Shown here: positions 4,073-24,555 of the stretch, one piece after another
Position numbering within the stretch: position 1 is the stretch's first letter
Layout of the letters: every line of letters begins with the position of its first letter
Source of the DNA: Asaia bogorensis
GTDB taxonomy: Bacteria; Pseudomonadota; Alphaproteobacteria; CACIAM-22H2
Assembly: GCA_945892765.1 (NCBI GenBank)
Contig: CAMDDQ010000001.1
Location: forward strand, 40,486 to 104,485
Direction of reading: 5' to 3'
Length of the DNA: 64,000 nucleotides
Made by a program: the position numbers and the translations under genes
Notes under the pieces: generated by a model
Told to the model about the DNA's origin: nothing
Seen by the model: only the letters and a program-made list of their open reading frames with translations
The model's database searches: none

Positions 4073-5016
4073 GCGAATTCCTTCCGAACCCCGAAACCGC
4101 GGACGCGGTCGCCGGCTGGCTCGAATGGCTGGCGACGGAACGCCGCGCCTCCCGCCACACTCTTTCCGCCTATCGCCACGACCTGCTCGCCTTCCTCGGC
4201 TTCATGGGTGGACATCTGGGCAGCGCCCAGTCCCCGGCCGATCTGGCGCTTCTCCGCACCGGCGATTTCCGAGCGTTCCTCGCCCGCCGCGCCGGCAAAG
4301 GCCTGACCGCCGCGACCAATGCCCGCGCGCTGTCGGTCCTGCGTTCGTTTTTTCGCTGGCTCGACCGCAACGGCCACGGCAAATGCGCCGGCCTCGGTGG
4401 ACTGCGCTCACCCAAGTTGCCGCGATCGGTGCCGCGCCCGTTGACCGTGGACGACGCGCGCAACGCGGTCGATCAGGTCGGCGATCTCAGCGACGAACCC
4501 TGGGTGGGTTTACGCGATACCGCGCTGCTTTGCCTGCTCTATGGATGCGGCCTGCGTATCGACGAGGCGTTGTCATTGAACCGCAGCGACATCGCGCCCC
4601 TGCTCCAGGGCGCGGACAGCCTGATCGTGCTCGGCAAAGGCCGTAAGCAGCGCATGGTCCCGGTTCTGCCCGCCGTGCGCGAGGCGCTGGCCGCCTATCT
4701 CGCTGTCTGCCCCCATGCCGCCGGCGTCACCGCGCCGGTGTTCTTCGGCATGCGCGGGAAACGCCTGCACGCCGGCATCGTGCAGAAACGGGTGCGAGAA
4801 CTGCGCGGCCTCATCGGCCTGCCCGACCGGGCCACGCCACACGCGCTGCGCCACAGCTTCGCCACACATCTGCTGGCCGCTGGCGGCGATCTGCGCGCCA
4901 TCCAGGAACTGCTCGGCCACGCCTCGCTGTCGACAACACAGCGCTACACCGAAATCGACGAAACCCAATTGCTCGCCGTCTACGACAAGGCGCATCCGCG
5001 AGCCCGTCGGGCGTAG
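4051..5016 (+). CDS. xerC: tyrosine recombinase XerC
   Basis: Carries HALRHSFATHLL and the LGHASLSTTQRYTEID catalytic Tyr motif. Start MAGPHDLSEF chosen by the usual XerC N-terminus. Confidence 0.9.
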   Translation: MAGPHDLSEFLPNPETADAVAGWLEWLATERRASRHTLSAYRHDLLAFLGFMGGHLGSAQSPADLALLRTGDFRAFLARRAGKGLTAATNARALSVLRSFFRWLDRNGHGKCAGLGGLRSPKLPRSVPRPLTVDDARNAVDQVGDLSDEPWVGLRDTALLCLLYGCGLRIDEALSLNRSDIAPLLQGADSLIVLGKGRKQRMVPVLPAVREALAAYLAVCPHAAGVTAPVFFGMRGKRLHAGIVQKRVRELRGLIGLPDRATPHALRHSFATHLLAAGGDLRAIQELLGHASLSTTQRYTEIDETQLLAVYDKAHPRARRA

Positions 5017-8280: not shown

Positions 8281-10680
8281 TTAGAGACCCCGGTTAGAAA
8301 GCGAGAAGAACTCGTCCGGGCTAACACGAATGGCGGCGCCGGTCGGACAGGCCCGCACGCAGGACGGTCCGCCTTCGATGCCTTTGCACATGTCGCATTT
8401 CACCGCCATCTTGCGTTTGTTGGGGTCCTTTTTCTTGCCGTGGGTGGCTTCCCAGTCCTCGCCGGGTCCATGGCCCAGCCCAAACAACATCCAAGCCAGC
8501 AAACCCGGCTTGGCCGGCGGCTCCGCCGACATGTGGATGACGTGATAGGGACAGTTGCGCTCGCAATTGCCGCAGCCAATGCATTTTTCGTCGATGAACA
8601 CCTCGCCATTCGGCGAACGATGGATGGCGTCGGCCGGGCAGTCGGACATGCAGTGCGGATGTTCACAATGCCGGCACGACGTTGGCACATGGATCGAGGC
8701 ATAGGTCGGCCCAGCCTCGCGATCGAGCCGCGACACGCCGTGATGGGTCTCGGCGCAGGCCTTTTCGCAATTGTCGCACCGCACGCACAGCGATTCGTCG
8801 ATCAGCAGAACGTCAGTTGCCTCGCCCAACCCTTGATCGAGCAGGAACTGCATCAGGTTCGAGTGGTCGGGGCGGCCTTCCATGCGGACGTTTTCGACGA
8901 GCCGCGCTTGGAACCGAGCCTCGACCTCTACGCGCAACTCCGGCGAGCACTCGAGCAGGCCGCGAAAGGCGCCGCCGTCGATCTTTATGGCCTCCGTCGC
9001 CACCGCCGCCCGCACCGTGGCGGTGCGCCGGCTCTTGGTCAGCAGCGCCATTTCGCCGACATAGTGGCCAGCCGGAACATACGACAAAACCACGTCGCGG
9101 CCGCCCAGGCTGCGCGACACGGTCACCGACCCGCTGCGGATCAGATAGACGTTGTCGCCGACATCACCCTCCTTGATCAGCACGTCGCCCGCACTGAAGG
9201 ACTGGATGGTGGCCGTCCGCACGACATCGACGAGGTCGCGCTTGGAAACCTGCGGCGCCAGATGGGTCTGAACCTGGCGGATCATGGCGGTCTCGTCGAG
9301 AACACGTTTGGCCGCGGCGATCGAGCGAGTCAGCTTGATGACCTGCCTGCGCGGCGTCTCGATCAACACGCAATCGGCGCCCGCCACGACCGTCGCCGTG
9401 CGGCGGCGGCCGGAAATCAAACCCATCTCGCCGAAGAATTCGCCGGTCTTCAGCGTCACCTTGATCGCCGGGTTTTCGGCGCTGACCTGGACATCGACCG
9501 ACCCCGACAGGATCGAATAGAAGCTGTTGGAGTAATCGTTGCGCTTGAAAACGGTCTCGCCCTGCTTGGGCACATGGACGTCGCTGTCGAGCAGGAATTC
9601 TCGAAGCTGCAGCTTGGTCAGCGAGGAGAACATCGGCACGCGCTGTTGCACGCCTTCCAGGAACTGCGAGACCGTCACCCCTTGTAGGCCGGTGAGTTTT
9701 GCCTCAAGCAACGGCTCGTCGGCCGGCTTCACCTCATTCCCCAGGATGTACTCGATTACCTCATAGCCCTGGTTCATGCAGTGTTTGATTAGGGGATAAC
9801 CGGCCAGCGCGCCGATGATGTAAAGCCCCTTCACGTTCGATTCGTAGCTGTCGCTGACCCCCGGAACCGAGGCCGGATCGGCGTTGGGGAACACGATGCC
9901 GCAGGCTTCGACGAATTTGCGCGGCGGCAGGGCGCCAATACGAGCGATGACCCGGTGGCACTTGACCACCGCCTCACCCTCCGGGGTTTTCAGAAAAATG
10001 GCGCTGGGATCGGTCTCGACCTTAATGACCTTGGTGTTGAAATAACACTGGATGCGGCCGTCCTTGATGGCCGATTCGATCAGTGCGACGTTGCCCGCCT
10101 TGGCGCGGGCGAAATCGCCCATGACGTTGACGACGATGACCTCGTTCTGGGCGGCCAGCGCGATGGCGTTTTCGAGCCCGGCATCACCGGCGCCGATCAC
10201 AACGATGGTTTCGTCTTTGTATTCTTCTGGATCGTCGAGCTGGTACTGGACGTTGGGGCCGGTTTCGCCGGGTACGCCTAGGGTGCGGATATTGCCCTGC
10301 AATCCAATGGCGAGCACAACGGCATCGGCGGTGAGCGTTTGTTTGTTGGCGAGCGTGATCGTGAAGATCGCGCCGTCCTTCTTGATGCCCGCGACATCGG
10401 CGTTTTGGCGCAGGTTGAATTTCAACTCGCCGGTGCTTTTGTCCCAGGAACCGAGGATGGTTTCGCGGGCGCCTTCCTTGAATTGAAGATCGCTGCGCAG
10501 GGGCAGGACCTCCGGCGTCGCCATGACGTGTTTTTTCTTCTGATACTTGTAGATCGTATCGGAAAGATGGGTGGTGCGTTCGAGCAGGACATAAGACGCG
10601 CCGCGCTTGGCGGCACGCCCCGCCGCGCTTAATCCCGCCGGGCCCGATCCGACAATCGCGATCGCATAGTGTTCGGCCAT
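8281..10680 (-). CDS. NAD(P)/FAD pyridine-nucleotide-disulfide oxidoreductase fused to two cNMP-binding domains and multi-cluster 4Fe-4S ferredoxin domains
   Basis: GSGPAGLSAAG and VVIGAGDAGLENA Rossmann motifs; two CAP-type cNMP-binding segments (FGEMGLISGRRRTATVVA, VGEMALLTKSRRTATVRA); Cys clusters CVRCDNCEKAC, CRHCEHPHCMSDCP, CIGCGNCERNCP, CDMC...CVRACP. Confidence 0.8.
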   Translation of the reverse strand: MAEHYAIAIVGSGPAGLSAAGRAAKRGASYVLLERTTHLSDTIYKYQKKKHVMATPEVLPLRSDLQFKEGARETILGSWDKSTGELKFNLRQNADVAGIKKDGAIFTITLANKQTLTADAVVLAIGLQGNIRTLGVPGETGPNVQYQLDDPEEYKDETIVVIGAGDAGLENAIALAAQNEVIVVNVMGDFARAKAGNVALIESAIKDGRIQCYFNTKVIKVETDPSAIFLKTPEGEAVVKCHRVIARIGALPPRKFVEACGIVFPNADPASVPGVSDSYESNVKGLYIIGALAGYPLIKHCMNQGYEVIEYILGNEVKPADEPLLEAKLTGLQGVTVSQFLEGVQQRVPMFSSLTKLQLREFLLDSDVHVPKQGETVFKRNDYSNSFYSILSGSVDVQVSAENPAIKVTLKTGEFFGEMGLISGRRRTATVVAGADCVLIETPRRQVIKLTRSIAAAKRVLDETAMIRQVQTHLAPQVSKRDLVDVVRTATIQSFSAGDVLIKEGDVGDNVYLIRSGSVTVSRSLGGRDVVLSYVPAGHYVGEMALLTKSRRTATVRAAVATEAIKIDGGAFRGLLECSPELRVEVEARFQARLVENVRMEGRPDHSNLMQFLLDQGLGEATDVLLIDESLCVRCDNCEKACAETHHGVSRLDREAGPTYASIHVPTSCRHCEHPHCMSDCPADAIHRSPNGEVFIDEKCIGCGNCERNCPYHVIHMSAEPPAKPGLLAWMLFGLGHGPGEDWEATHGKKKDPNKRKMAVKCDMCKGIEGGPSCVRACPTGAAIRVSPDEFFSLSNRGL

Positions 10681-11072
10681 GCCGGCCCCCCCTCGGACAC
10701 GTCAACGTTTATCTTGAGCCCCCGAACCCGAATCGACACTTCGCGAAAGGTCCGAGCCGCCAGGATTTCATAGACACGTTAGGGTTATAGCCCGACGGTT
10801 GTCAATTTCGGAGTGTCCTTCTACAGTGCATTTCTGTCACGTCGAACGCGCCCGCAACAGGGGGGAACCAACGGGTGACAAAGCGGCGACGTTCCAGTAC
10901 CCGCTATGGAGCCTGATCGGCGATTTCCCCATGGCCGCGCTGATGGCGATGGGCAGGATGCAGCGAGAAGTGGACAAAGTTGTGGGGGCCCGTCGGGCGA
11001 AGCCCGACTGACTCCGGAGTCGGCCGTTTCGCCGGCAGGGGCCTCCACGCCCCCAATAATCCAGGTCGGTGT

Positions 11073-11687
11073 TTAGGTCTTCCGGCGCAGCGGGCGGATG
11101 CGGGTGAGGTCGGCGGCTTCGGGTTCTCCCCAACGTTTGACCAAACCGAGATCGAGGTCGAACTGATCGAGGATGCGGCCGACCGTTTGGTTGACGATGT
11201 CGTTCACGGTGGCGGGTTTGGCATAAAAGGCCGGCACCGGCGGCATCACCACCGCGCCCATTTCCGTCACCGCCGCCATGCTGCGCAGATGTCCCAGATG
11301 CAGCGGCGTTTCGCGCACCGCCAACACCAGCCGCCGCCTTTCCTTCAGGGTGACGTCGGCGGCCCGGCTCAACAGGCTCGAGGTCACGCCGGAAGCGATC
11401 TCCGACAAAGTGCGGATCGAACAGGGCACGATCGCCATGCCGAGTGTCTTGAAGGAACCGCTGGCCAGCGACGCACCGATATCCGTGACCGCATGGAAGA
11501 CCGCAGCGAGATCGCGCACTTGGGCGACCTTTAGCGTCGTTTCATGGGCCAGCGTGATTTCGGCGGAGCGCGACATCACCAGATGTGTTTCGACATCGGT
11601 CCCGCGCAGCGCTTCCAGCAGCCGAATGCCGTAGACGACGCCGGACGCGCCGCTGATGCCGACGACTAATCTTTTGGGAGAAGCCAT
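11073..11687 (-). CDS. ubiX: flavin prenyltransferase UbiX
   Basis: MASPKRLVVGISGASGVVYGIRLLEAL matches the UbiX/Pad1 N-terminus. Start placed at M13 of the ORF-track frame. Confidence 0.85.
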   Translation of the reverse strand: MASPKRLVVGISGASGVVYGIRLLEALRGTDVETHLVMSRSAEITLAHETTLKVAQVRDLAAVFHAVTDIGASLASGSFKTLGMAIVPCSIRTLSEIASGVTSSLLSRAADVTLKERRRLVLAVRETPLHLGHLRSMAAVTEMGAVVMPPVPAFYAKPATVNDIVNQTVGRILDQFDLDLGLVKRWGEPEAADLTRIRPLRRKT

Positions 11688-11827
11688 GACAACCATCCTA
11701 CCGGCGGCCCGGCAAAGCGGCAATGCGAAGCGCGGCCTTGCCTCGCCGGTATGAAAGACGCACCCTATCCTCCGTGAGCGCCGATTCGCCAGAAGCCGAA
11801 AACGCCAACGCCACCCATCGCGAAAAG

Positions 11828-12397
11828 ATGGCGCGGATCAAGGCGGCACGCGACCGCATGATGGCGACCAAGACCGAACAACGCGGCCTGCTCATTGTCC
11901 ATACCGGCAAGGGCAAGGGCAAATCGACCGCCGCCTTCGGCATGGCCTTGCGCGCCATCGGCCATGGGATGCGAATCGGCATCGTGCAATTCATCAAGGG
12001 CGCGTGGAATTGCGGCGAGCGCGGCGCGCTGGAACATTTCGCCGAGTTGGTGACCATCCGCGCGATGGGGGAGGGCTTCACCTGGGAAACCCAGGATCGC
12101 GAGCGCGACATCGCCGCGGCGAGCCGGGCCTGGGACATGGCAAAATCGATGATCGCCGATGCCGGTTACGACATGGTGATTCTCGACGAGTTGAACGTCG
12201 CGCTGCGTTATGGCTATCTGCCCCTCACCGAGGTCCTGGATGTGTTCCGGTCGCGGCCGCCGGGGCTGCACGTCGTTGTCACCGGCCGCAACGCCGCGCC
12301 CGAATTGATCGACCTCGCCGATCTCGTCACCGAAATGACCATGGTCAAACATCCGTTTCGCGATGGAATCAAGGCGCAGAAGGGGGTCGAGTTTTGA
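11828..12397 (+). CDS. cobO: cob(I)alamin adenosyltransferase CobO/BtuR
   Basis: GLLIVHTGKGKGKSTAAFGMALRAIGHGMRIGIVQFIKG is the BtuR P-loop signature. Start at M36 of the ORF frame by N-terminal alignment. Confidence 0.85.
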   Translation: MARIKAARDRMMATKTEQRGLLIVHTGKGKGKSTAAFGMALRAIGHGMRIGIVQFIKGAWNCGERGALEHFAELVTIRAMGEGFTWETQDRERDIAAASRAWDMAKSMIADAGYDMVILDELNVALRYGYLPLTEVLDVFRSRPPGLHVVVTGRNAAPELIDLADLVTEMTMVKHPFRDGIKAQKGVEF

Positions 12398-12444
12398 GGC
12401 CACCCGCCGCCATTCACGCCCCTACCCAAAGATTGGAGGCATCC

Positions 12445-13146
12445 ATGCTCCGCACTGCTATCCCGCACATCAACCAATCCCGCCGGTCCTTTTTGACCAC
12501 CGGGCTGGCTGCCGGAATCGGCGCCGCAACCTTGGCCGCGCCCGCCCGCGCCGATCAGCCCCTGGTCGATCGCGCCCGCCTTACCTTGCAGGCGCTGCTC
12601 GTCGACCGTGACTACGCCACCTTTCAACGCCTTCTGCCATTGGCCAAGGCCACCTTGATCGTGCCCAATCTGTTCAAGGCCGGATTGTTCCTGGGCGCCG
12701 AGGGCGGCGATGGCGTTCTTCTCGTCCGCGATCCGGGGCGCGGCTGGAGCCCGCCTGCCTTCTATGCCCTGGCCAGCGGCAGCATTGGCCTGCAAATCGG
12801 CGTGCAGGACGCCCAAGTCGTGTTGTTGATCATGAACGAGAAGGGGCTGAACGCGCTGACCCGCGATCAGGTCAAGCTGGGCGCCGACATCAGCATCGCC
12901 GCCGGCCCGGTCGGCGCCGGGCTGGACGCGGCAACCACGACCAATCTGGGCGAGGACATTTATTCTTTCTCCAAGACCCGCGGGCTGTTCGGCGGCTTGT
13001 CGCTCGAAGGCACGGTCATCTATCGCCGCGACGATTTTAATGCCGCCTATTACGGCGCCGGCGCCACGACCCAGACCATTGTCTTCGACCGGCGTTTCAC
13101 CAATCCCGGTGCCGCCGCCTTGATCGCCGCCCTGCCGCGAACCTGA
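12445..13146 (+). CDS. SYLF (Ysc84/DUF500) lipid-binding domain protein with a Tat signal
   Basis: Twin-arginine signal [25 protein letters not shown] and GGAG RBS. It is inserted between cobO and cobQ. Confidence 0.6.
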
Positions 13147-13151
13147 CCGCC

Positions 13152-14669
13152 GTGAGCCGCGCGGGGGTGACGGATACCGGCATCCGCCGCGACCGCAAGC
13201 GAACCGCCGCCCTGATGATCCAGGGCACCGGCTCGGACGTTGGCAAATCCATGATCGTCGCCGGGCTGGCTCGCGCCTTCACCCGACGCGGGCTGCGCGT
13301 GCGCCCCTTCAAGCCGCAAAACATGTCGAACAACGCCGCGGTCACCGAAGATGGCGGCGAAATCGGGCGCGCCCAGGCGCTTCAGGCCCGCGCCTGCGGA
13401 ATCGCGCCGCATTCGGACATGAACCCAGTGCTGCTCAAGCCGCAATCGGACACCGGCGCGCAAATCGTCGTGCAAGGCCGCGTGTATGGCTGGGCGAACG
13501 CCGCGGAGTATCGCGGCCTAAAAGGAACTTTGCTTCCCGCCGTGCTCGAAAGCTTCGGCCGGCTCGCCGTCGATGCCGATCTGGTCCTGGTCGAAGGCGC
13601 CGGCAGCCCAGCCGAAATCAACCTCCGCGACGGCGACATCGCCAATATGGGTTTTGCGCTCGCCGCCGAGGTTCCGGTCGTTCTTGTCGGCGACATCGAA
13701 CGCGGCGGCGTCATCGCCAGCTTGGTCGGCACATATTTGCTGCTGGAACCCGCCGAACGCGCGGCCCTGAAAGGTTTCATCGTCAACAAATTCCGCGGCG
13801 ATGCCCGATTGTTCGACGACGGCATCCGCGCAATCGTGGAGCGCACGGGCATGGAATGTCTCGGCGTGGCGCCCTATTTCGATGCCGCGTCGACGTTGCC
13901 GGCGGAGGATTCCGCCAGCCTCGATTCGACCAAGCTCCGGCGCCGGACTGACGGCCATATCCGAGTCGCCATCCCGCGTTTGCCGCGCATCGCCAATTTC
14001 GACGATCTCGACCCACTCGCGGCCGAAGCCGACGTGTCGGTTGAAATGGTGCTGGCGGGCCGGCCCTTGCCCGAAGATGCCGAGCTGATCGTGCTGCCGG
14101 GTTCCAAATCCACGCTGTCCGATCTGGCTTTCCTGCGGCGGCAGGGCTGGGACATCGACATCCTCGCCCATGTCCGTCGCGGCGGCACGGTGATCGGCAT
14201 TTGCGCCGGTTATCAGATGCTGGGCACACACATCGCCGATCCCGACGGTGTGGACGGAAACGCGGGTGAAACACCCGGTCTGGGCTTGCTCGCCGTGGCA
14301 ACGATCATGGGCAGGGATAAGACGCTGATCGCGGTGAAGGGTGGCGATGCCCTAAGCGGTGCGGCCATCCGCGGTTATGAAATGCATGTCGGCGCCACGA
14401 CCGGCCCCGATCTTAAGCGCCCGATGCTGGTCATCGATGGCAAGCCGCATGGCGCCTCCAGCCGCGATGGCCGGGTCCGCGGCTGTTATATCCATGGGTT
14501 GCTCGCGTCGGACGATTATCGCGGCAAACTCTTGCGGGGCTTGCGGCCGAGCCGCGACGGCGGCGTTGCCTACGACACGCTGGTCGAATCTACCCTCGAC
14601 CGACTCGCCGATCATTTGGCCGAAGCACTCGATCTCGACCGGCTGCTGACGATAGCCCGAGCGCGGTGA
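13152..14669 (+). CDS. cobQ: cobyric acid synthase CobQ/CbiP
   Basis: [13 protein letters not shown]-loop and a C-terminal glutamine amidotransferase domain. The start may lie at a later codon. Confidence 0.9.
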
Positions 14670-15668
14670 TCAGCTTCCGAGGCTGACCCAAGCCAGTCCG
14701 GCGACAAGCATGGCGTTGAGCAGACACGCGGCGACAAACATGAACAGCGCCCGGCGGATATCGCCGGCAGTGGCGCGCGCGCGGCCTTCGCCGATCCAGC
14801 GGTCGTTGACGAATTCGCCGGGGTAACGCCGCGGCCCGGCCAAAGCGAGGTCGAGCGCGCCCGCCATCGCCGCCTCCGGCCAGCCGGAATTGATCGAGCG
14901 ATGATGGCCCGAATCGCGCAACGTCGTTTTCAACGCCCGCCAGGGATTGGCCGTGGGCACGAAAAACGCGGCGAGGATCATCAGCAAGGCGCTCAACCGG
15001 GCGGGAACGAGGTTCAGCGCGTCGTCGAGCCGCGCCGCGGTCATGCCGAACGCCCGATACCGGGCGCTGCGATGGCCGATCATGCTGTCGAGCGTGCTAG
15101 CGGTCTTGTAGACGAACAGGCCGGGCAGCCCGGCCAGGGCGTACCAGAACACCGGCGCCACCACGGCGTCCGAGAAATTCTCCGCGCAGGATTCGATGGC
15201 GGCGCGGGCCACGCCGTGTTCGTCCAGGCTTTCCGGATCGCGGCCGACGATATGGCGCACGGCGTCCCGCCCGGCGTATAGTCCGCCCTTATCCAGGGCC
15301 ACGGCCACCGCTCGCACGTGATCGAACAGGCTGCGCTGCGCGACGAGGACGGCGACCAGGAAAAGTTCGAGCGCCCCACTCCAGACCCAGCCTTGGCCGA
15401 TCCATTGGATGAACCAAGCGACTCCGCCAGCGGACCCGCACAACACCAGGACGACGAAGGCGCCGCGCAGCGTTCGGTCGGCCTTGCTGCGGCTGTCCCG
15501 GTTGAGGCGGAGTTCCAGGAATTCGATGGCCCGGCCGACCAGTGCGACCGGGTGCGGCACGAAACGGAACAGTTGCGGCAGATCGCCGAGAACGGCGTCT
15601 ATCGCCAGCGCCAGCAATAGAATAATGAATGGATCGACGGCGACGGTCTCGGCTTCCCCCATGGCCAA
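14670..15668 (-). CDS. cobD: adenosylcobinamide-phosphate synthase CobD/CbiB
   Basis: Polytopic membrane protein of the CobD/CbiB family. Convergent with cobQ and divergent from cbiX. Confidence 0.85.
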   Translation of the reverse strand: MAMGEAETVAVDPFIILLLALAIDAVLGDLPQLFRFVPHPVALVGRAIEFLELRLNRDSRSKADRTLRGAFVVLVLCGSAGGVAWFIQWIGQGWVWSGALELFLVAVLVAQRSLFDHVRAVAVALDKGGLYAGRDAVRHIVGRDPESLDEHGVARAAIESCAENFSDAVVAPVFWYALAGLPGLFVYKTASTLDSMIGHRSARYRAFGMTAARLDDALNLVPARLSALLMILAAFFVPTANPWRALKTTLRDSGHHRSINSGWPEAAMAGALDLALAGPRRYPGEFVNDRWIGEGRARATAGDIRRALFMFVAACLLNAMLVAGLAWVSLGS

Positions 15669-15728
15669 AGCATGGGACGCGGAGTCGGGCGCGTCAATGA
15701 GAGCGAAACCAAGGTCGAGGCCGCAACG

Positions 15729-16700
15729 ATGGACGATGTCGCGATTCTAATCTGCGCCCATGGCAGCCGCGACGGCGACGCCATAACCGAGCTGGAGGCG
15801 TTGGCCGCCGGCATGAGGCGGCGTCTGCCCCACCGCGAAATCGGCGCGGCCTATTTGGAATTCGCCCGCCCCACCATCCGCGAAGGGCTGGAGGCGCTGG
15901 TCGCGCGCGGCGCCCGCCGCATCCATGCCCTTCCCGCCATGCTGTTCGCCGCCGGCCATGTGAAGAACGACCTGCCTTGGGAGTTGAACAGCTTCGCCGC
16001 CGACCATAAGGGCGTGGAATTGGCTTATGGCCGTGATCTCGGCATAGACGCCCGTTTGTTGGCGGCGGCGCGCGCCCGCATCGAGGCAGCCGAAAAAGTG
16101 TCGCCGCGCGCGATCGCGCGCAAGGAAACGCTGCTGCTGGTCATCGGCCGCGGCACCAACGATCCCGACGCCAATGGCAACATCGCCAAGATTGCGAGCA
16201 TGTTGTGGGAAGGCATGGGCTTCGGCTGGGCGATGGTCGGCTATAGCGGCGTTGCCCAGCCCCTGACGCCCGATGCGCTCGCATATGCCCAGCGGCTCGG
16301 CTTTAAGCGGATCGTGGTCTTTCCCTATTTCCTGTTCACCGGGGTGCTGGTGAAACGGATTTACGCCGCCACCGCCGAAGCCGCCGCCGCCCATCCCGAA
16401 ACTGAAATTCTCAAGGCGAGCTACCTCAACGATCACCCCGAGGTTCTCGACACCTTCATCGACCATCTGGCCGAAATCGGCCGGGGCGAGAATCTGATGA
16501 ATTGCCGGCTGTGCAAATACCGCGAAAGGCTGGTCGGGTACGAAAGCGCCGTCGGTGCGCCGCAGGTCGGGCATCATATCCATGTCCGCGGCATCGGCAC
16601 CGATGCCGATCATCATCACGATCACGAGCACGATCATGACCACGATCATGACCGCGATCATGGCCATCACGACCACGGCCATCGGCGCGATTCAAAATAG
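15729..16700 (+). CDS. cbiX: sirohydrochlorin cobaltochelatase CbiX, long form with a His-rich C-terminal tail
   Basis: MDDVAILICAHGSRDG N-terminus, a duplicated CbiX fold, a CxxC pair and the tail HHHDHEHDHDHDHDRDHGHHDHGH. Confidence 0.8.
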   Translation: MDDVAILICAHGSRDGDAITELEALAAGMRRRLPHREIGAAYLEFARPTIREGLEALVARGARRIHALPAMLFAAGHVKNDLPWELNSFAADHKGVELAYGRDLGIDARLLAAARARIEAAEKVSPRAIARKETLLLVIGRGTNDPDANGNIAKIASMLWEGMGFGWAMVGYSGVAQPLTPDALAYAQRLGFKRIVVFPYFLFTGVLVKRIYAATAEAAAAHPETEILKASYLNDHPEVLDTFIDHLAEIGRGENLMNCRLCKYRERLVGYESAVGAPQVGHHIHVRGIGTDADHHHDHEHDHDHDHDRDHGHHDHGHRRDSK

Positions 16701-16704
16701 CCGC

Positions 16705-18258
16705 ATGAGGCAGTTCGACGCCTATGTGATGGTCGATTGGAGCGCCGCCTCGAAGCCCGTCACCGGAAAAAACAGCATCTGGTATGCGGTCGGGCGGCGC
16801 GGCAAGGCCGGGCCGGATATCGAAACCGGAAACGTCGCGACACGTTCCGCCGCGATCGCGGAAATCAGGCGCCGGCTGATGGATTTCCAGGCGCGGAAAC
16901 AATCGGTGTTGGTCGGCTGGGACTTTCCCCACGGTTATCCGCGCGGATTCGCGCGCCGGCTTGGGCTGGGCGGTACGCCCTGGGACGCGACCTGGCGTTT
17001 CCTCGCCGAACGCAGCGACCTCGTTGACGCGGAGGACAATTCCAACAACCGGTTCGAGATCGCCGCCGCCCTCAACCGCAACCATTTCAAAGCCGGCTTT
17101 CCGTTTTGGGGCCATCCGGCGGGCCGCAGAATCGCCGGGTTAAAGCCGACCAAGACCCCGGGCTTCGGGCAGGGTGAAATCGCGGAAAGACGCCTGATCG
17201 AAACGGCGCCCTATGTCGCCAAGGCGAAATCGGTCTGGCAACTCGCTTATAACGGCTCGGTCGGCAGTCAGGCGCTTCTGGGCATCCCCTGTGTGCATCG
17301 GCTGCGGCACGATCGCGACCTGGCCCCGCATTCCACCATATGGCCGTTCGAGACCGGGCTGCGCGCCCTGACCCGTCCGGCCACGGCCGAGCCCTGGATC
17401 GTCCATGCCGAAATCTATCCGTCCCTGTGGTCTTCGCGGATCAAGCCGGAGCCCGGCCAGACTTTGGACGAGGCGCAGGTTCGTGCCGTCGTCTCCCTTC
17501 TCGCCGAGCGCGACGACGCCGGGGCGCTGCCGCGCCTGTTCGCCGGCCCCTCCGATTTGAGCGCGGCCGAACGGCGGAGTGTTGAGCAGGAGGAAGGCTG
17601 GATATTCGGCGTGACAGGAAAGCTGGACTATGAACGCGATCCCCAAGCCATCTACCGGCGTTCCTTCGCCACCATCACCGAGGAAGCCAATCTCGCGCGC
17701 CTGCCGCGGGACATGGTGGCGATCGCCACCCGCCTTATTCATGCCTGCGGCATGACCGATGTCGTCGACGATCTCGCCTGGTCGGCCGACGCCGCGGCCG
17801 CGGGTCGCCAAGCGCTCGCGGGCGGCGCCCCGATCCTAGTCGATTCGCGCATGGTCGAAGCCGGCATCATCACCGCACGCCTAACGGCCGGCAACAGCAT
17901 CGTCTGCACACTGCGCGACAAAGGCGTCGACGGGCTCGCGCGCAAACTCGGAACGACACGTTCCGCCGCGGCCGTGGAAAAATGGCGCACCCGGCTTGCC
18001 GGCGCCGTCGTCGCCATCGGCAACGCACCCACAGCGCTGTTCCGCCTGCTCGAATTGCTCGACGAAGGGGCCGAGCGCCCGGCCGTGATTCTCGGCTTTC
18101 CCGTCGGTTTCGTCGGGGCCGCCGAAGCCAAAGCGGCGCTGGAGGCCGATTCGCGCGGCGTGCCCTTCATTACTTTACGTGGCCGTCGCGGCGGCAGCGC
18201 CATGGCCGCGGCCGCCGTCAACGCCCTGGCGCGGCCTGAAAACGAGGACAGCGCATGA
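16705..18258 (+). CDS. cobH: fusion of an uncharacterised ~330-aa N-terminal domain with precorrin-8X methylmutase CobH/CbiC
   Basis: The C-terminal ~190 aa (AIYRRSFATITEEANLARLPRDMVAIATRLIHACGMTDVVDDL...) align to CobH. The N-terminal domain (MRQFDAYVMVDWSAAS...WDFPHGYPRGFARRLG) has no recognised family. Confidence 0.75.
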   Translation: MRQFDAYVMVDWSAASKPVTGKNSIWYAVGRRGKAGPDIETGNVATRSAAIAEIRRRLMDFQARKQSVLVGWDFPHGYPRGFARRLGLGGTPWDATWRFLAERSDLVDAEDNSNNRFEIAAALNRNHFKAGFPFWGHPAGRRIAGLKPTKTPGFGQGEIAERRLIETAPYVAKAKSVWQLAYNGSVGSQALLGIPCVHRLRHDRDLAPHSTIWPFETGLRALTRPATAEPWIVHAEIYPSLWSSRIKPEPGQTLDEAQVRAVVSLLAERDDAGALPRLFAGPSDLSAAERRSVEQEEGWIFGVTGKLDYERDPQAIYRRSFATITEEANLARLPRDMVAIATRLIHACGMTDVVDDLAWSADAAAAGRQALAGGAPILVDSRMVEAGIITARLTAGNSIVCTLRDKGVDGLARKLGTTRSAAAVEKWRTRLAGAVVAIGNAPTALFRLLELLDEGAERPAVILGFPVGFVGAAEAKAALEADSRGVPFITLRGRRGGSAMAAAAVNALARPENEDSA

Positions 18259-19460
18259 CACCCTGGCTTTTTGTCGTTGGCGTCGGCGAGGACGGGCTGG
18301 ATGGCCTGCCATCGTCCCATCGCGCGCTGATCGATTCCGCGGAGGTACTGGTCGGCGGCGAACGCCTGCTCGCAATGGTTCCCGCCGGCAAGGCCGAACG
18401 CATCACCTGGTCCAGGCCGTTTGCCGATTCATTTCCCGCCATCGCCGCCCAGCGCGGGCGCATGGTCGTCGCACTCGCCTCTGGCGATCCGCTGTGGTTC
18501 GGCGCCGGCGCCTCCCTGCTCGACCGGTTCACGATCGAGGACATGACGATCCTGCCCACGCCCGGCGCCTTCAGCCTGGCGGCGGCGCGCCTGGGCTGGC
18601 CGCTCGCGGGCGTGGAGACGATCAGCCTCGCGGCGCGGCCGCTCGCGCAGCTCAACCTTTTTCTCGCGCCCGGAATCCGTATCCTGGCGCTTTCACAGGA
18701 CGGGACAACACCCGCGCAAGCCGCCGTGCTGCTGCGCGAGGCGGGCTGGGGGCCCAGCCGATTCGTCCTGCTTGAAAGGCTCGGCGGCGAGCGGGAACGG
18801 ATTGTCGAGGGCACGGCGGAAAATTGGCTGGCCGAACGCTGCAACGTGCTCAACACCATCGCCATCGAGTGCCGCCCCGGCCCAGGGGCCAAGCCGCGCT
18901 CGCGCACCGCCGGTTTGCCCGACGAGGCCTTCAGCCATGACGGCCAGATCACCAAACAAGAGGTGCGCGCCGCGACTCTCGCCGCGCTGGCGCCGCTGCC
19001 GGGCGCGCTGCTTTGGGACATCGGCGCCGGCTGCGGCTCGATCGGCATCGAATGGTCGCGCGCCGCGCGCGACGCCCAGGCCATCGCCATCGAACGCGAT
19101 GAATCGCGGCGCGCGCTGATCGCCGCCAATGCCACCGGGCTCGGTGTACCCGGCCTGCGGATCGTGGCCGGCGCCGCGCCCGGCGCGCTCGCAAAATTAC
19201 CGGCGCCGGACGCCGTTTTCATCGGCGGCGGCATCGGCGATCCCGGCCTTGTCGAGGCGGCGTGGGCGGCGCTGAAGCCGCGCGGGCGGCTCGTCGCCAA
19301 TGCGGTGACGGTCGCGGGCGAAGCCGAGGTGGCGGCTGCGCGCGCGGCTTATGGCGGCGAGCTGGTGCGACTTCAGGTATCGCGCGCAGAGAAACTCGGC
19401 GATCATCTGGCATGGCGGCCATTGTTGCCGGTCACGCAATGGGCGGCCACGAAGGATTAA
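18255..19460 (+). CDS. cobL: precorrin-6Y C5,15-methyltransferase (decarboxylating) CobL (CbiE/CbiT fusion)
   Basis: An N-terminal tetrapyrrole-methylase fold plus a C-terminal SAM-MTase (LWDIGAGCGSIGIEW). The ATGA overlap with cobH indicates translational coupling. Confidence 0.85.
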   Translation: MTPWLFVVGVGEDGLDGLPSSHRALIDSAEVLVGGERLLAMVPAGKAERITWSRPFADSFPAIAAQRGRMVVALASGDPLWFGAGASLLDRFTIEDMTILPTPGAFSLAAARLGWPLAGVETISLAARPLAQLNLFLAPGIRILALSQDGTTPAQAAVLLREAGWGPSRFVLLERLGGERERIVEGTAENWLAERCNVLNTIAIECRPGPGAKPRSRTAGLPDEAFSHDGQITKQEVRAATLAALAPLPGALLWDIGAGCGSIGIEWSRAARDAQAIAIERDESRRALIAANATGLGVPGLRIVAGAAPGALAKLPAPDAVFIGGGIGDPGLVEAAWAALKPRGRLVANAVTVAGEAEVAAARAAYGGELVRLQVSRAEKLGDHLAWRPLLPVTQWAATKD

Positions 19461-20171
19461 GTGATGGGCATCGGCACCCTTTACGGTCTCGGTGTCGGGC
19501 CGGGCGATCCGGAGCTCCTCACGCTCAAGGCCCTGCGCGTGCTGCGCGCCTGCCCCGTAATCGCCTATCCCGCGCCGGAGGAAGGCAACAGCTTCGCGCG
19601 CTCCATCGTTGCGCCCCACCTGATCGGAAACCAGCGAGAGATCGAAATCCGCATGCCGTTGAGCGCCGAGCGATTCCCCGCGGCGGAGGCTTATGACCGC
19701 GGTGCCGCGGCCATCGCGGCCGAGCTGCGCGGGGGAAACGACGTGGCGGTGTTGTGTCAGGGCGACCCGTTTCTCTATGGCTCCTTCCAATATCTGTTCG
19801 CGCGCATGGCCGACGACTTCAGGGTCGTGGTTGTTCCGGGCGTTTCGTCGATTACCGCGTCGGCGGCGGCGCTGTGCATGTCATTGGCCGCCCGCGACGA
19901 TGTCGTCGCGATTGTCCCCGCGACGCTGCCGGAAGAGCGGCTGGAAGCGACCCTCGCCGCGGCCGATGCGGCGGCCATCCTCAAACTCGGGCGGCATTTC
20001 GCCAAGGTACGCACCGTGTTGGACCGGCTTGGCCTCGCCGATCGCGCCCGTTATATCGAACGCGCCACGTTGGACGGCCAGACCATGACACCGCTCGCCA
20101 GCGTCGATCCGGCGCGGGTTCCCTATTTCTCGATAATCCTCGTGCATAAACGCGGCGCGGCTTTCCGATGA
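19461..20171 (+). CDS. cobI: precorrin-2 C20-methyltransferase CobI/CbiL
   Basis: LYGLGVGPGDPELLTLKA motif. Confidence 0.85.
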   Translation: MMGIGTLYGLGVGPGDPELLTLKALRVLRACPVIAYPAPEEGNSFARSIVAPHLIGNQREIEIRMPLSAERFPAAEAYDRGAAAIAAELRGGNDVAVLCQGDPFLYGSFQYLFARMADDFRVVVVPGVSSITASAAALCMSLAARDDVVAIVPATLPEERLEATLAAADAAAILKLGRHFAKVRTVLDRLGLADRARYIERATLDGQTMTPLASVDPARVPYFSIILVHKRGAAFR

Positions 20172-21985
20172 ACCGGACACGTCTGCCCGCGGGCGCCGCG
20201 CTGGTCGCGCTGACCGCCGACGGCGCGCGGCTCGCCGCCCGAATAAAGCCCGCGCTGCCGGCCGCCCGCATCCATGGGCTCGGTGCGCGCATTGCCGTCG
20301 CCGACGAGATTTTCTCCGACACGGCCGAACACCTGCGCTTCCTCTTCGCCGCCGGCCGGCCGATCATCGGTATCTGCGCGGCCGGCATCCTGATCCGCGC
20401 GTTGGCGCCGCTGCTCGCCAACAAACGCGCGGAGCCGCCGGTAATCGCGGTCGCGGCCGATGGCGGCGCGGTTGTGCCGCTTCTCGGCGGGCATCGCGGC
20501 GCCAACCGGCTCGCCAAGGCCATCGCTGCCGCGCTCGGCGGCGTCGCTTCGATCACAACCGCCGGCGACACGGCCCTCGGCTTTGCCCTGGACGACCCGC
20601 CCGCGGGCTGGCGCGTCGCCAATGTAGAGGCCGCCAAGGCAATGACGGCCGCGCTTCTTGCGGGCGGTTCCGTGGCGCTGGCGGTGGAGGCCGGCGACGC
20701 CACCTGGCTGCGCGACTCGGGGATCGGCTTCGTGGAAACGGCGCCGCTCCGCGTGCTGGTAACCGACCGCGCCGTCATTGGCGATGCCTCGACGCTGGTC
20801 CTGCATCCGCCGGTTCTGGCGGTGGGTGTGGGCTGCGAGCGGGATGCCGACCCGGAGGAACTTGCCCGGTTGGTCGATGGCACCTTGGCCGCGCATGGGC
20901 TGTCGCCGCTTTCGGTCGCCTGTGTCGCCAGCATCGATTTGAAGGCCGACGAGCCGGCCGTGCAGTCCATGGCACGAAGACTGGGCGTGCCGGCCAGGTT
21001 CTACCCAGCCGCGCGGCTAGAGGACGAAAAGCCGCGCCTGCGCAACCCGTCCGACGTCGTGTTCCGCGAAACCGGCTGTCATGGCGTCGCCGAGGGTGCG
21101 GCGCTGGCCGCCGCTGGGAAGGAATCTGTCCTGATCGTGCCCAAGGTCAAATCGGCGCGCGCCACCGGCGCCGTCGCGCGCAGTCCCGCCGACATCGATG
21201 CGACCGCGGTTGGCCGCGGGCGCGGCCGTCTGGCAATAATCGGCATCGGTCCCGGCGCGGCCTCGTTGCGCACACCGGAGGCCTCCGCCGCCTTGGCCGA
21301 AGCGACCGATATCGTCGGCTATTCCCTCTATGTGGAACTGCTGGGGTCCGCCGCCATCGGCAAACGCATTCACGAACGGCCCTTGGGCGCCGAGACCGAA
21401 CGGACGCAACTCGCGCTCGACCTCGCTGCCGCGGGAGCCAACGTCGCCTTGATTTCATCCGGCGACGCCGGAATCTATGGCTTGGCGAGCCTCGCCTTTG
21501 AAATGCTCGACCGCGAGAACCGGGCCGATTGGAATCGCGCCGCCATCGCGGTTATTCCCGGGGTTTCCGCGCTACAGGCCGCGGCGGCAGCCGCCGGGGC
21601 CATCCTCGGCCATGATTTCGCGGCGATTTCGCTGTCCGACCTGCTGACGCCATGGCCCGATATCGAGCGACGGCTGCGGGCCGCGGCCGAGGGCGATTTC
21701 GTCGTTGCCCTCTACAATCCCGCCTCGGCGAAGCGGCAACGCGGGATCGGCGTGGCCCGCGACATCCTGCTGGCCCATCGCGCGCCCGACACGCCGGTCG
21801 TGTTGGCGCGCAATCTGGGCCGCGACGGCCAACGTGTCGACACCATCACCTTGGCGGAGCTCGGCCCCGACAAAGTCGACATGCTGACTATCGTATTGAT
21901 CGGCTCGACCCAATCGCGAAGATTGCGCCGCGGCCGGGAGGATTGGGTCTACACGCCGCGCGGTTACGAACGGAAATCGACGTAG
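20168..21985 (+). CDS. cbiG-cobJ: CbiG (cobalt-precorrin-5A hydrolase) fused to precorrin-3B C17-methyltransferase CobJ/CbiH
   Basis: N-terminal CbiG domains (...GIGCERDADPEEL...) and a C-terminal tetrapyrrole methylase (LAIIGIGPGAASLRTPEA...DVVFRETG). Confidence 0.85.
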   Translation: MNRTRLPAGAALVALTADGARLAARIKPALPAARIHGLGARIAVADEIFSDTAEHLRFLFAAGRPIIGICAAGILIRALAPLLANKRAEPPVIAVAADGGAVVPLLGGHRGANRLAKAIAAALGGVASITTAGDTALGFALDDPPAGWRVANVEAAKAMTAALLAGGSVALAVEAGDATWLRDSGIGFVETAPLRVLVTDRAVIGDASTLVLHPPVLAVGVGCERDADPEELARLVDGTLAAHGLSPLSVACVASIDLKADEPAVQSMARRLGVPARFYPAARLEDEKPRLRNPSDVVFRETGCHGVAEGAALAAAGKESVLIVPKVKSARATGAVARSPADIDATAVGRGRGRLAIIGIGPGAASLRTPEASAALAEATDIVGYSLYVELLGSAAIGKRIHERPLGAETERTQLALDLAAAGANVALISSGDAGIYGLASLAFEMLDRENRADWNRAAIAVIPGVSALQAAAAAAGAILGHDFAAISLSDLLTPWPDIERRLRAAAEGDFVVALYNPASAKRQRGIGVARDILLAHRAPDTPVVLARNLGRDGQRVDTITLAELGPDKVDMLTIVLIGSTQSRRLRRGREDWVYTPRGYERKST

Positions 21986-23759
21986 AAGGCCTCGATCTGG
22001 CCCTGGCGACCGCGCACCTCCACCAGGCCGATGGATGTGACGGGAAGATCGAGCTTTGACGCCTGCCGCGTGACCCCGCTCATCACGACCACGACATTGC
22101 CGGGCTTATCGATGGACTTGCCAAGCTGCTCCAGCCGGTTCGCGGTGTTCACCGTGTCGCCGACGATGGTGTAGTTGATGCGGCCGGGTGCGCCGATATT
22201 GCCGACGACCACGTCACCCGAATGCAGTCAGATGCGAATGCCCAAGGTCCCGCCCTCGCGCCCCATGGCCTCGGCGATGGCCAGTGCCGCGCGGCAGCCA
22301 CGGGCGGCATGGTCTTTCTGTTTCTCGGGCGCGCCCCAAAAGGCCATGACATCGTCGCCGATGAATTTGTCCACGGTGCCACTCTCGGCCTCGATGCAGG
22401 CGGTGATCAGCCCGAAATGTCGGTTGAGCAGCGGCGCGACCTCCGGCGCCGGGAGTTTTTCCGCCATCGTGGTGAACCCGGCGATGTCGGTGAACATCAC
22501 TGTGACGGTGCGTTCCTTCGACGGCATCGCACCCTTGGCCGCGTCCCATTCGCCATGGCCGACCAGTCGCTGCACCAGCTTCCTGGGGACATAGGTCTCG
22601 AACCAACGCAGCCCGACGACCATGGCGTTGAAGGCCTGGCCGGCGGCGTTCAGTTCCACGAACAGGGTACGGGGTAACCTTTCGACCGTATCGAGCGACA
22701 AATCGCTTACCCGCCTTGCGGCGATCGAAAGCCGGATCAGCGGCACGGTCAAATATCGGGAATAACCGTAAGCGACCAGCAACGAGACGAGCAGAACCGC
22801 GATCCCGGCGATCGCCGCCCAGCGCAGGCGTGTCAGTTCGTCGGTGATGTCGGTGGCCGCGAAATAGACTCCGACTTCCCAGGGCTTGTCGCTGTAACGG
22901 TCCAAGACGCGCGACAGCATGGCATATTGAATGCCCCCGGATTCGGCGAGCCGAATGCCGGTCTTTTCGATGAAGTCCCGGTCGAGCACGCCCAATTTCT
23001 GCGGGCGGTCAAAAGCCAGGAGAACCGGATCCCCGACCTCCGCGATCGTGGGCAGCAAATTCTCGCCGCGCGGCGGCCGGCGCGTCTGAAGAAGAGGATG
23101 GGCGAGGACCATGTGATGGTCGTAAAGAATGAAGGCCGTGCCTTTGAGGGTGCGCGCGGTGTCGTCGAGAATTTGCGAAAACTGGTCCACCTGGACGGTG
23201 CCACCAATAGCCCGACATAATTGCCGCCGATGCGAACCGGATAGCGAACATTGACCAGCACCTGATCGGCGGTTTCCGGCAGCACGATTTCGGCCCAATA
23301 CAGCCCCGTCCTGTCGCGCGCCGCGTCCATGGCGTTGCTGATGACCGGCATCTCCCGCACATCGATGACATCGAGAGCGACTCCATTCGGATGGCGAAGG
23401 GCCCGCAGCATCGAATTGTCGGTGCCGATGAGTACGAGCGAACGCACTTCGGGAGTCGCCGACAAGGCGCCGGCCTCGATCTGGCGGGCAAGGTGAATAA
23501 GCTGACTCTCCACTGGCCGCAGATATTGGTCGATCACGCTGACGATCTGCAGGCTCGCGGCTTCGGATTTGTCGCGCAGCAAGTCGATGGTATTGGTGCG
23601 GGCGCTCCAGAGGCCGAGCGCGAGGGCCGAAGCCACGGCAAGGAAGACGAGGCCGCCGAAGCCAAGCACCAATCCGGTGGCGATCTTGATCTCGGCCGAC
23701 GGGTGCGGCGCCTCGCCTTGTGCGGCCGGCGCGGCAATGGCGGGGGAGTGGCTTTTCAT
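21964..23759 (-). pseudogene. disrupted sensor adenylate/guanylate cyclase (dCache-like periplasmic domain, HAMP, class III cyclase)
   Basis: The reading frame switches near 23200-23215 (RIGGNYVGL in one frame, AIGGTVQVDQFSQILDD continuing in another). An in-frame TGA at 22228-22230 sits inside the catalytic domain (...GTLGIRI*LHSGDVVVGNIGAPGRINYTIVGDTVNTANRLE). Confidence 0.6.
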
Positions 23760-23784
23760 GACGGCACCAAGCTAAGAATACCGG

Positions 23785-24555
23785 ATGATCGTGCATTTCA
23801 TCGGCGCGGGGCCGGGTGCCGCAGACCTTATCACGGTGCGCGGCCTCAACCTCATCCGGCGCTGCCCCGTCATTCTTTATGCCGGATCGCTGGTCCCGGA
23901 GGCGGTGGTCGCGGAGGCCCCCCAAGGCGCCCGAATCGTCGATACCGCGCCGCTCCACCTGGATCAAATCGCGGAAGAGATGCGCGCCGCCCATGCCCGG
24001 AACGAGGACGTGGCGCGAATCCATTCCGGCGATCCCTCACTGTACGGCGCGATCGGGGAGCAGATGCGGCGGCTCGACGCTTTGGGTATCCCGTATGACG
24101 TGACGCCGGGCGTGCCGGCCTATGCGGCGGCGGCGGCGGCGCTGCGCGCCGAGTTGACCCTGCCTGGACTTAGCCAGACCGTGATCCTAACCCGCACCGC
24201 CGTGCGAGCCTCACCCATGCCCGAAGGGGAGTCGCTGTCCAGGCTTGGGGCCAGCGGGGCGACGCTCGCCATTCATCTGTCGATCAACAACCTCGCCGTC
24301 GTTCTTCGCGAATTGACACCTTTGTATGGCGGCGATTGCCCGGTCGCCGTCGTCCACCGTGCCTCGTGGCCGGACGAGGCGATCCTGCGCGGCACACTCG
24401 CCGACATCCGCGCCAAGGTGAAGGCGGCGGGGTTCACGCGCACGGCCATGATCCTGGTCGGCCGCGCCTTGGCGCCGGCCGGCTTCGACGACAGCCGGCT
24501 TTATGCCGCCGACCATCGCCATGTCTGCCGCAAAGCCGGAAACGATCAGGACTGA
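23785..24555 (+). CDS. cobM: precorrin-4 C11-methyltransferase CobM/CbiF
   Basis: [20 protein letters not shown]...[14 protein letters not shown]. Confidence 0.9.

Follow-up and report, generated by a model that had tools for sequence, protein, structure and literature searches.

We analysed a 64,000-nt stretch of Asaia bogorensis DNA (GenBank assembly GCA_945892765.1, contig CAMDDQ010000001.1, positions 40,486 to 104,485 of the forward strand), hereafter the window, in which cobH, a gene of a cobalamin (B12) biosynthesis operon, is joined in frame to a preceding domain of another superfamily. The fusion gene occupies 16705..18258 on the plus strand and encodes 517 amino acids (aa) plus the stop codon in an uninterrupted open reading frame (ORF). 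The open frame, a single entry, runs from 16555 to 18258 (+), and we placed the gene start at the ATG at 16705 because the protein beginning there, MRQFDAYVMVDWSAAS..., agrees with the N-terminus common to all homologues. Four nucleotides separate the cbiX stop codon (TAG, 16698-16700) from this ATG, and the TGA of the fusion gene (18256-18258) overlaps the cobL start codon at 18255 (ATGA, 18255-18258), placing the gene inside the cob operon as an earlier reading made from the sequence alone (the sequence-only reading) had it. At the domain junction ...GAGGAAGGCTGGATATTCGGCGTGACAGGAAAGCTGGACTATGAACGC... reads EEGWIFGVTGKLDYER, giving the residues ...EEGWIFGV-TGKL-DYERDPQAIYRRSF...; a hidden stop or frameshift splitting the ORF, which that reading had named as grounds for its refutation, was looked for here and none was found. 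N and CobH also formed one ORF at 29 of 80 genome loci, these being the best 80, most similar to the window, a choice that favours cob-linked members, and the same architecture recurred in many metagenome proteins. The closest relative, P0001, is likewise fused and is 92% identical over the N-terminal domain and 91% over the full length. We rejected a sequencing or assembly artefact on the 29 independent fused loci together with the clean junction, and a recent horizontal insertion on the third-position GC content (GC3) of the N-terminal domain, which at 0.785 equals that of the neighbouring genes (0.77-0.83). The fusion of CobH to an extra N-terminal domain in a continuous ORF, as first described from the sequence, is thus confirmed as real and uninterrupted.

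A Pfam search of the fusion protein gave CbiC (PF02570) as the sole match, at aa 316-510 with 233.4 bits against a cut-off of 22.5 and covering profile positions 2-195 of 196, while the NCBIfam CobH equivalog NF006136 matched aa 307-511 with 315.2 bits (cut-off 276). These matches delimit a CobH/CbiC domain (17623..18237, +), that is, a precorrin-8X or cobalt-precorrin-8 methylmutase. H346 in the motif RLIHACG was invariant across 35 fused homologues, and from motif position only we take it to be equivalent to the catalytic His43 of Pseudomonas denitrificans CobH. With a full-length profile match above both curated cut-offs, the invariant histidine and a cob-operon place between cbiX and cobL, the C-terminal 205 residues resemble CobH/CbiC, and they are presumably an ordinary methylmutase that is active and serves the cob operon. 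The usual form of this enzyme, however, is a stand-alone protein of ~210 aa, whereas here it follows a 305-aa N-terminal domain. The latter had been estimated at ~330 aa, a figure that the start of the NF006136 match at aa 307 reduces to ~305 aa.

The N-terminal domain (N-domain; aa 1-303, 16705..17613, +) ends in the motif EEGWIFGV and belongs to an uncharacterised family with a predicted RNase H-like fold. The sequence-only reading had found no recognisable family for it, and this holds for Pfam, in which neither the window protein nor the N-domains of scanned relatives matched any family, but not for NCBIfam, in which NF011066 ('MobB/unknown domain fusion protein') matched aa 3-303 (E=3e-39) through its 'unknown domain' half. 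The match covered model positions 166-441 with 135 bits, compared with an equivalog cut-off of 596 bits, and the window protein has no MobB domain; on sequence, the N-domain is homologous to this 'unknown domain', and the protein as a whole falls outside the equivalog. Sequences in the PDB gave no matches at E up to 10, and neither PADLOC nor PHROGs matched the window domain or six multi-domain relatives at E up to 0.1. Canonical RNase HI and HII profiles matched neither the window protein nor the scanned relatives in Pfam, nor the window protein in NCBIfam.

An AlphaFold2 model of the N-domain, built on 46 homologues, was confident (predicted local distance difference test, pLDDT, 94.6; predicted template modelling score, pTM, 0.93) and RNase H-like. 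The modelled strands are beta1 (6-11), beta2 (25-32), beta3 (37-44), beta4 (68-72) and beta5 (232-236), the helices span 47-63, 239-245 and 254-271, and the core has the topology of RNase H-like proteins, a five-stranded sheet in the order beta1-beta2-beta3-alpha-beta4-alpha-beta5-alpha. Between beta4 and beta5 lies a long insertion rich in Trp, Pro and Gly, mostly coil yet well-ordered. Foldseek searches with this model returned nothing but generic matches to RNase H, integrases and terminases, with best E values of 0.04 against the PDB and 0.023 against the viral structures of BFVD. We rejected an ASKHA sugar-kinase or actin-like ATPase on the single RNase-H-like core, in place of two tandem subdomains, and an intein or homing endonuclease on the lack of such motifs and on a position that is conserved and vertically inherited.

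We aligned 353 domain sequences from contexts linked to cob genes, linked to molybdenum cofactor (Moco) genes and linked to neither, and found D11 kept in 348 of them, D73, E236 and D255 each in 352, and Q258 in 351; E297, R47, R116, R163, W26, W135, G187 and P214 were likewise near-invariant, each kept in 348-352 sequences. Proteins from Roseobacter, at 31-37% identity, retain all these residues. By sequence position, conserved carboxylates were found at beta1, at beta4 and at beta5 with its following helix. D11 (codon 16735..16737, +) ends strand beta1 in the motif VDWS, D73 (16921..16923, +) lies just after strand beta4 in G(F/W)DFP, and E236 (17410..17412, +) ends strand beta5 in AEIYPS, all three being predicted catalytic carboxylates; D255 (17467..17469, +), in the motif DxxQV where the long helix 254-271 begins, is the predicted fourth. 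The four residues occupy canonical RNase H-like active-site positions and form the predicted catalytic set. That they are near-invariant across all contexts argues for one conserved catalytic activity common to those contexts.

The two halves are joined by a linker of aa 304-311 (TGKLDYER; 17614..17637, +). In a full-length model built on the 35 fused homologues (pLDDT 90.9, pTM 0.63), residues 306-311 fell below pLDDT 50, and the model predicts two well-folded, independent domains with a disordered linker and no confident mutual orientation. A fixed composite active site of N-domain and CobH was rejected on the pTM of 0.63 of this model. Standalone homologues end right after ...EEGWILGV, exactly where the linker of the window protein begins (in L085 the standalone gene stops after ...GWILGV), and in some genomes N and cobH are separate neighbours. 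Both observations fit an origin by loss of the stop codon between adjacent, translationally coupled N and cobH genes, which we infer to be the most likely route; the event would have taken place in an ancestor of a Rhodospirillales-like alphaproteobacterial lineage, with vertical inheritance since.

The family is large, with at least 4139 relatives in a 90%-clustered protein collection and at least 3033 clusters at 50% identity (E<=1e-3), 1053 of which reached E<=1e-30; at least 583 species-representative genomes had a pattern match to a relative. For the 80 loci, we searched up to 10 kb on each side of the N-domain by tblastn with the cob proteins of the window (CobO, CobQ, CbiB, CbiX, CobH, CobL, CobI, CbiG and CobJ). 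Cob genes lay alongside the N-domain in 43 loci, most of which share the window order cobO-cobQ-cbiB(-)-cbiX-N-cobH-cobL-cobI-cbiG-cobJ; they come from a Rhodospirillales-like alphaproteobacterial lineage, represented among others by Stellaceae, Magnetospirillum, Aliidongia, Defluviicoccus vanus and many uncultured Alphaproteobacteria. The 29 loci with N and CobH in one ORF belong to these 43. The two were separate adjacent genes in L011, L035, L067 and L073, and in L001 the N-domain gene followed cbiX with no cobH. The survey that the sequence-only reading had proposed, for a separate N-domain gene beside cob genes, thus found one beside cbiX or cobH in these five loci. In L013, L047 and L055 the N-domain gene followed cbiB, with neither cbiX nor cobH. 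Several genes gave fragmented matches in L016, L029, L032 and L060, which look like frameshift-prone assemblies. In L020, L022, L026, L030, L039, L041, L049 and L065, cobI lay ~1.7 kb farther from cobL than in the window, which implies an extra gene between cobL and cobI in that subset, approximately +1.9 to +3.6 kb after the N-domain.

Domain partners were scanned with Pfam in 136 proteins, namely the window protein and the 135 top-scoring cluster representatives. CbiC was the partner in 17 (window included), CbiG_C in three, a tetrapyrrole methylase in two, among them P0223 with N joined to CobL, and a class II aldolase in one (P0263); the remaining proteins were single-domain or had extensions matching no profile. 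Further architectures, including N-terminal extensions of ~110-300 aa with no Pfam match, were seen in P0126, P0142, P0146, P0154, P0173, P0233 and P0263. The separate neighbours, together with the three CbiG_C and two CobL-type methylase fusions, support a B12 association that extends beyond the window gene. Databases name the fused proteins merely 'precorrin-8X methylmutase' or 'CbiG'. Our literature search found no relevant work on an N-terminal fusion of CobH/CbiC, on a link between RNase-H-like proteins and cobalamin, or on the gene intervening between mobB and moeA.

The family is not B12-specific. Thirty-seven of the 80 loci had no match to the window cob proteins within the distance searched, a few of their contigs being too short to judge. 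In a Caulobacterales/Hyphomonadaceae clade (Caulobacter, Phenylobacterium, Hyphomonas), the N gene stands in conserved housekeeping synteny with genes for an NADP oxidoreductase, a MatE transporter, a GFO/IDH/MocA oxidoreductase and DAHP synthase. At other loci without cob genes the neighbours were genes for a periplasmic binding protein together with ABC transporter genes, acyl-CoA dehydrogenases, a protein with tetratricopeptide repeats and a 2-oxoglutarate oxygenase domain, a response regulator and a cation-efflux gene. P0002, a 497-aa protein with an extra C-terminal domain, matches the window domain at 50% identity, on a par with the cob-linked relatives; its gene stands in a conjugative element with a type IV secretion system (T4SS), surrounded by genes of the VirB9/VirD4-like, Rad52-like and archaeo-eukaryotic primase (AEP) kinds. 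P0010 (392 aa, with a C-terminal four-cysteine ribbon) is flanked by Gp49/HigB-like and ParE toxin genes, and the gene for P0023 overlaps the hydantoinase A stop codon and is followed by a Y1 transposase gene. Relatives in these T4SS, toxin-antitoxin and transposase contexts are 47-50% identical to the window domain. A neighbour-joining tree (no support values) set the Caulobacterales clade apart and nested the acidobacterial, myxococcal and mobile-element members among the cob-linked ones.

Some of these relatives have features of their own. The ~500-aa form (P0002/L002, 10001-11494; L042, 9947-11476) has an unannotated 200-aa C-terminal domain and lies directly downstream of a Cation_efflux (cation diffusion facilitator) gene in both loci examined; in L002 it stands inside the T4SS/Rad52/AEP-primase element. 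The four-cysteine ribbon (CGGCRHEYGANGSDIFQRRCPACQGG) marks the C-terminus of a subfamily of ~392-423 aa comprising P0006, P0010 and P0017 and seen at L003 (10001-11179), which is placed between Gp49/HigB-like and ParE toxin-antitoxin genes. In L006 (7734-13494), a standalone N gene that overlaps the hydantoinase A stop is followed by a Y1 (IS200/IS605-type) transposase and hydantoinase B, so that the pair splits hyuA from hyuB.

A second large branch is tied to Moco. At least 1659 relatives in Roseobacteraceae carry the NCBI name 'molybdopterin guanine dinucleotide synthesis', and in genomes such as Ruegeria TM1040 and Phaeobacter inhibens the operon runs fdhD-mobA-mobB-N-moeA with 4-nt overlaps. 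Fusions occur here as well, of N with MoeA/Glp in Salipiger and of N with MobB in NF011066 (PRK14495). Homology to the 'unknown domain' of NF011066 and to the Roseobacter proteins extends along the entire N-domain, and the Phaeobacter inhibens protein (31% identity, E=6e-31) has every motif in common with it; their partner and operon, however, are MobB/MoeA of the Moco pathway rather than CobH, and their names derive from gene context. The proposal that the N-domain supplies a missing or alternative B12-pathway function is therefore unsupported and probably wrong, given the loci without cob genes, the Roseobacter branch and the ~50% identical relatives found within a T4SS element or flanked by toxin-antitoxin genes.

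Tentatively, and as the leading interpretation, we propose that the gene encodes a working CobH tethered to an RNase-H-fold, divalent-metal phosphodiesterase that is probably directed at nucleic acid and independent of CobH chemistry. In this proposal, two independently folding enzymes would be joined by a flexible linker of ~8 residues; the core beta1-beta2-beta3-alpha-beta4 ... beta5-alpha would carry D11, D73, E236 and D255 together with R47, R116 and R163; and the N-domain would act as a divalent-metal-dependent phosphodiesterase, most likely on nucleic acid, for example RNA:DNA hybrids or other structured forms, independently of the methyl migration (C11 to C12) expected of CobH. The analysis itself shows the ORF, the limits and fold of the domains, their conservation, the spread of the family and its fusion partners, whereas the catalysis and the class of substrate are what we infer. 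The reasons for favouring a nuclease are that the fold clade consists almost entirely of nucleases, that the DUF429 domain of RelZ, the one characterised neighbour, cleaves RNA:DNA hybrids and R-loops, that equally close relatives live in DNA-centred contexts, and that the RNase HI-CobC fusion Rv2228c provides a precedent.

DUF429 (PF04250; COG2410, COG4328, COG4923) shares with the N-domain an RNase H-like fold, conserved acidic residues in strands 1 and 4, and a structural clade, the 'clade D' of Majorek et al. (2014), which holds terminases, Tex, RuvC, YqgF and DUF429 (PMC3985635). According to the same work, DUF429 is mostly single-domain, with occasional fusions to metabolic or nucleotide enzymes, and is unlikely to be mobile (PMC3985635). 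The DUF429 domain of Mycobacterium smegmatis RelZ (MS_RHII-RSD) hydrolyses RNA:DNA hybrids and R-loops (PMC4429107, PMC7591505), demonstrating that a domain of this type can work as an RNA:DNA hybrid nuclease within a bifunctional protein. However, the DUF429 model has 214 positions, whereas the N-domain has ~300 aa, being longer through the insertion between beta4 and beta5. DUF429 gave no hit in the window protein and reached the Pfam gathering score in no relative (0 of 46 and 0 of 136), and among 190 relatives scanned there were two sub-threshold local matches (E=0.0023 and 0.074), the better being P0053 with 18.1 bits against a gathering score of 23 bits. Since this sequence link is marginal, we file the N-domain as a fold-level neighbour of DUF429 and not as a member. 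Rv2228c of Mycobacterium tuberculosis, in which both halves are active in vitro (PMC4429107), resembles the window protein in joining an N-terminal RNase-H-fold domain to a C-terminal B12-pathway enzyme. Its RNase half, however, is a canonical type-1 RNase H and its partner is alpha-ribazole phosphatase, whereas in the window protein no Pfam family of canonical RNase H was matched and the partner is CobH; because RNase domain type and partner both differ, the two fusions are independent events.

Several points weigh against a nuclease. The nuclease activity of the whole N-domain family is a prediction, the sequence link to DUF429 is marginal, and only ~110-130 of 307 residues superpose on known nucleases. 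The large insertion could form a small-molecule pocket. The median isoelectric point of the family is ~7, and its members are not generally basic, unlike many nucleic-acid binders. Furthermore, translational coupling and fusion have tied the domain to five enzymes from two metal-cofactor pathways (CobH, CbiG, CobL, MobB and MoeA), a recruitment that a generic nuclease leaves unexplained.

In a different account, somewhat unlikely in our view, the N-domain is an accessory enzyme of B12 and Moco biosynthesis whose RNase-H-fold site acts on a small phosphoester and whose fusion to CobH reflects a true pathway role. Candidate targets would be nucleotide-bearing forms of the cofactors, namely the cobamide nucleotide loop, adenosylcobinamide-GDP (AdoCbi-GDP), adenylylated molybdopterin (MPT-AMP) or molybdopterin guanine dinucleotide (MGD); alternatively, its step could be linked to the insertion of metal by CbiX or MoeA. 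CbiR, an enzyme of a nuclease superfamily, reportedly cleaves the cobamide nucleotide loop and would be a precedent. Such an account draws on the fusions to five pathway enzymes (CobH, CbiG_C, TP_methylase/CobL, MobB and MoeA/Glp), on the conserved operon places with 4-nt overlaps (cbiX-N-cobH at the 43 cob-linked loci and fdhD-mobA-mobB-N-moeA in the at least 1659 Moco-branch relatives), which adjoin the metal-insertion enzymes CbiX and MoeA, on the retention of N in cob clusters with no adjacent cobH (L001, L013, L047 and L055), and on the Cation_efflux gene next to the ~500-aa forms. Its stronger version, that the whole family is an unrecognised accessory enzyme of two metal-cofactor pathways, recruited independently, with the mobile-element members as secondary offshoots, we regard as unlikely; here an RNase-H-type two-metal site may act on a cofactor-linked phosphoester, or the domain may serve metal or cofactor hand-over. 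Against the accessory-enzyme account, relatives at 47-50% identity with the same invariant residues occur in conjugative, toxin-antitoxin and housekeeping settings that lack cofactor genes within 10 kb, the non-cob members nest among the cob-linked ones in the tree, and no fixed interface with CobH is predicted. Full reconstitution of corrin-ring synthesis has, to our knowledge, been achieved with no domain of this kind, the Moco pathway has likewise been reconstituted without it, and we know of no phosphoester in the substrates of CobH, CbiG and CobL.

Another account makes the gene a selfish or mobile nuclease that inserts in or beside well-expressed operons and occasionally fuses in frame, its link to CobH being expression hitch-hiking with no benefit to B12 synthesis. 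Members inside the T4SS/primase/Rad52 element, between toxin-antitoxin pairs and by a Y1 transposase between hyuA and hyuB point this way, as do the very diverse partner domains, a phylogeny that does not separate cob-linked from other members, and a fold clade that also holds transposases and terminases. We nevertheless consider it improbable, since the cob-operon position and ~40 invariant residues persist across several alphaproteobacterial families whose proteins are only 44-50% identical, a sign of long vertical descent under purifying selection; moreover, GC3 matches the neighbouring genes, the cob and Moco loci have no flanking repeats, transposase or integrase, neither PADLOC nor PHROGs gave a match, and DUF429 was judged unlikely to be mobile by Majorek et al. 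A scaffold had been suggested in the sequence-only reading. A non-catalytic scaffold or carrier, which would hold labile intermediates or dock CbiX, CobH and CobL for substrate channelling, would suit a domain that lies between consecutive pathway genes, is fused to several of them and could offer a binding surface on its large, well-ordered, Trp-rich insertion. That suggestion is weakened by the invariant acidic tetrad and by the lack of a predicted fixed or confident packing against CobH: four carboxylates and three arginines conserved almost absolutely everywhere form the pattern of an active site rather than of a docking surface, and the domain also occurs where nothing comparable exists to scaffold, which makes this role more improbable still. 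Finally, the two parts are separate genes in a few genomes, as they would be had a frameshift or missed stop joined them artificially here, but with clean read-through and the same continuous architecture at 29 independent loci and in many metagenome proteins we give that explanation almost no chance.

CobH and the Moco enzymes are textbook proteins, and both pathways are regarded as complete. The fusion itself is common in databases and hence is not a new object; what appears not to have been described before is the pattern in which one RNase-H-fold module occurs in B12 and Moco operons and also in mobile and housekeeping contexts. The family defined here, with at least 3000 sequence clusters, has no Pfam model, and we found no literature on it. 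In automated annotation its members take their names only from adjacent genes ('precorrin-8X methylmutase', 'CbiG', 'molybdopterin guanine dinucleotide synthesis'). Whichever reading holds, hundreds of database entries are mis-described. If the domain is a nuclease, the window gene would be a second, independent fusion of an RNase-H fold to a B12 enzyme after Rv2228c and would lead one to ask why enzymes of nucleic acids accompany cofactor genes; if its targets are the cofactors, it would be a new accessory step. Phaeobacter inhibens, Magnetospirillum and Caulobacter are tractable organisms for this question.

The rest of the cob cluster surrounds the fusion gene. Directly 5' of it lies cbiX (15672..16700, +; PF01903, E=3.9e-52), a cobaltochelatase gene with a His-rich tail. 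Its 3' end (16590-16697) encodes a long His/Asp-rich tail (HHIHVRGIGTDADHHHDHEHDHDHDHDRDHGHHDHGHRRDSK) from imperfect GAT/CAC/GAC repeats, preceded by a CxxC motif (NCRLCKYR), which gives this CbiX the look of a 'long' form whose tail binds metal. Downstream follow cobL/cbiE-T (18255..19460, +), whose ATG overlaps the fusion TGA, and, in a co-directional operon, cobI/cbiL (19461-20171, +) and a cbiG-cobJ fusion (20168-21985, +). Upstream lie the cob gene cobO (11723-12397, +), a Ysc84/SYLF-domain gene between cobO and cobQ (~12400-13146, +), cobQ (13152-14669, +) and cbiB (14670-15668, -), and this order, cobO-Ysc84 gene-cobQ-cbiB(-), matches that in related genomes. The two genes cobO and cobQ are ~1.3 kb apart in L010, L011 and L026, which points to an intervening gene there too, but adjacent (~0.6 kb spacing) in L017, L020 and L023. 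Despite the nine-gene cob cluster, no cobalamin riboswitch was detected in 10400-16800 even at E up to 1, and neither this nor any other Rfam family was found at the gathering score in the whole window; a link of the N-domain to the processing of riboswitch RNA is unsupported here.

The cbiG-cobJ fusion is set apart by an adenylate/guanylate-cyclase-domain ORF (22228-24024, -) from a tetrapyrrole-methylase-like ORF (23785-24555) that is 31% identical to CobI; in L008, L016 and L075 a tetrapyrrole-methylase-like ORF directly follows cobJ. About 1 kb upstream of cobO lies an unusual 798-aa sensor/redox fusion (8281-10680, -) composed of a pyridine-nucleotide-disulphide oxidoreductase, two cyclic-nucleotide (cNMP)-binding domains and a 4Fe-4S dicluster ferredoxin domain. 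The 566-aa product of 5699-7402 (-) combines an FHA domain at its N-terminus with several multihaem cytochrome c (c3/c7-type) domains. Farther upstream, the genes for PriA helicase (966-3221, -), a DUF484 protein (3092-4072, +) and a XerC/XerD-type tyrosine recombinase (3694-5016, +), which together span 966-5016, look like ordinary housekeeping genes.

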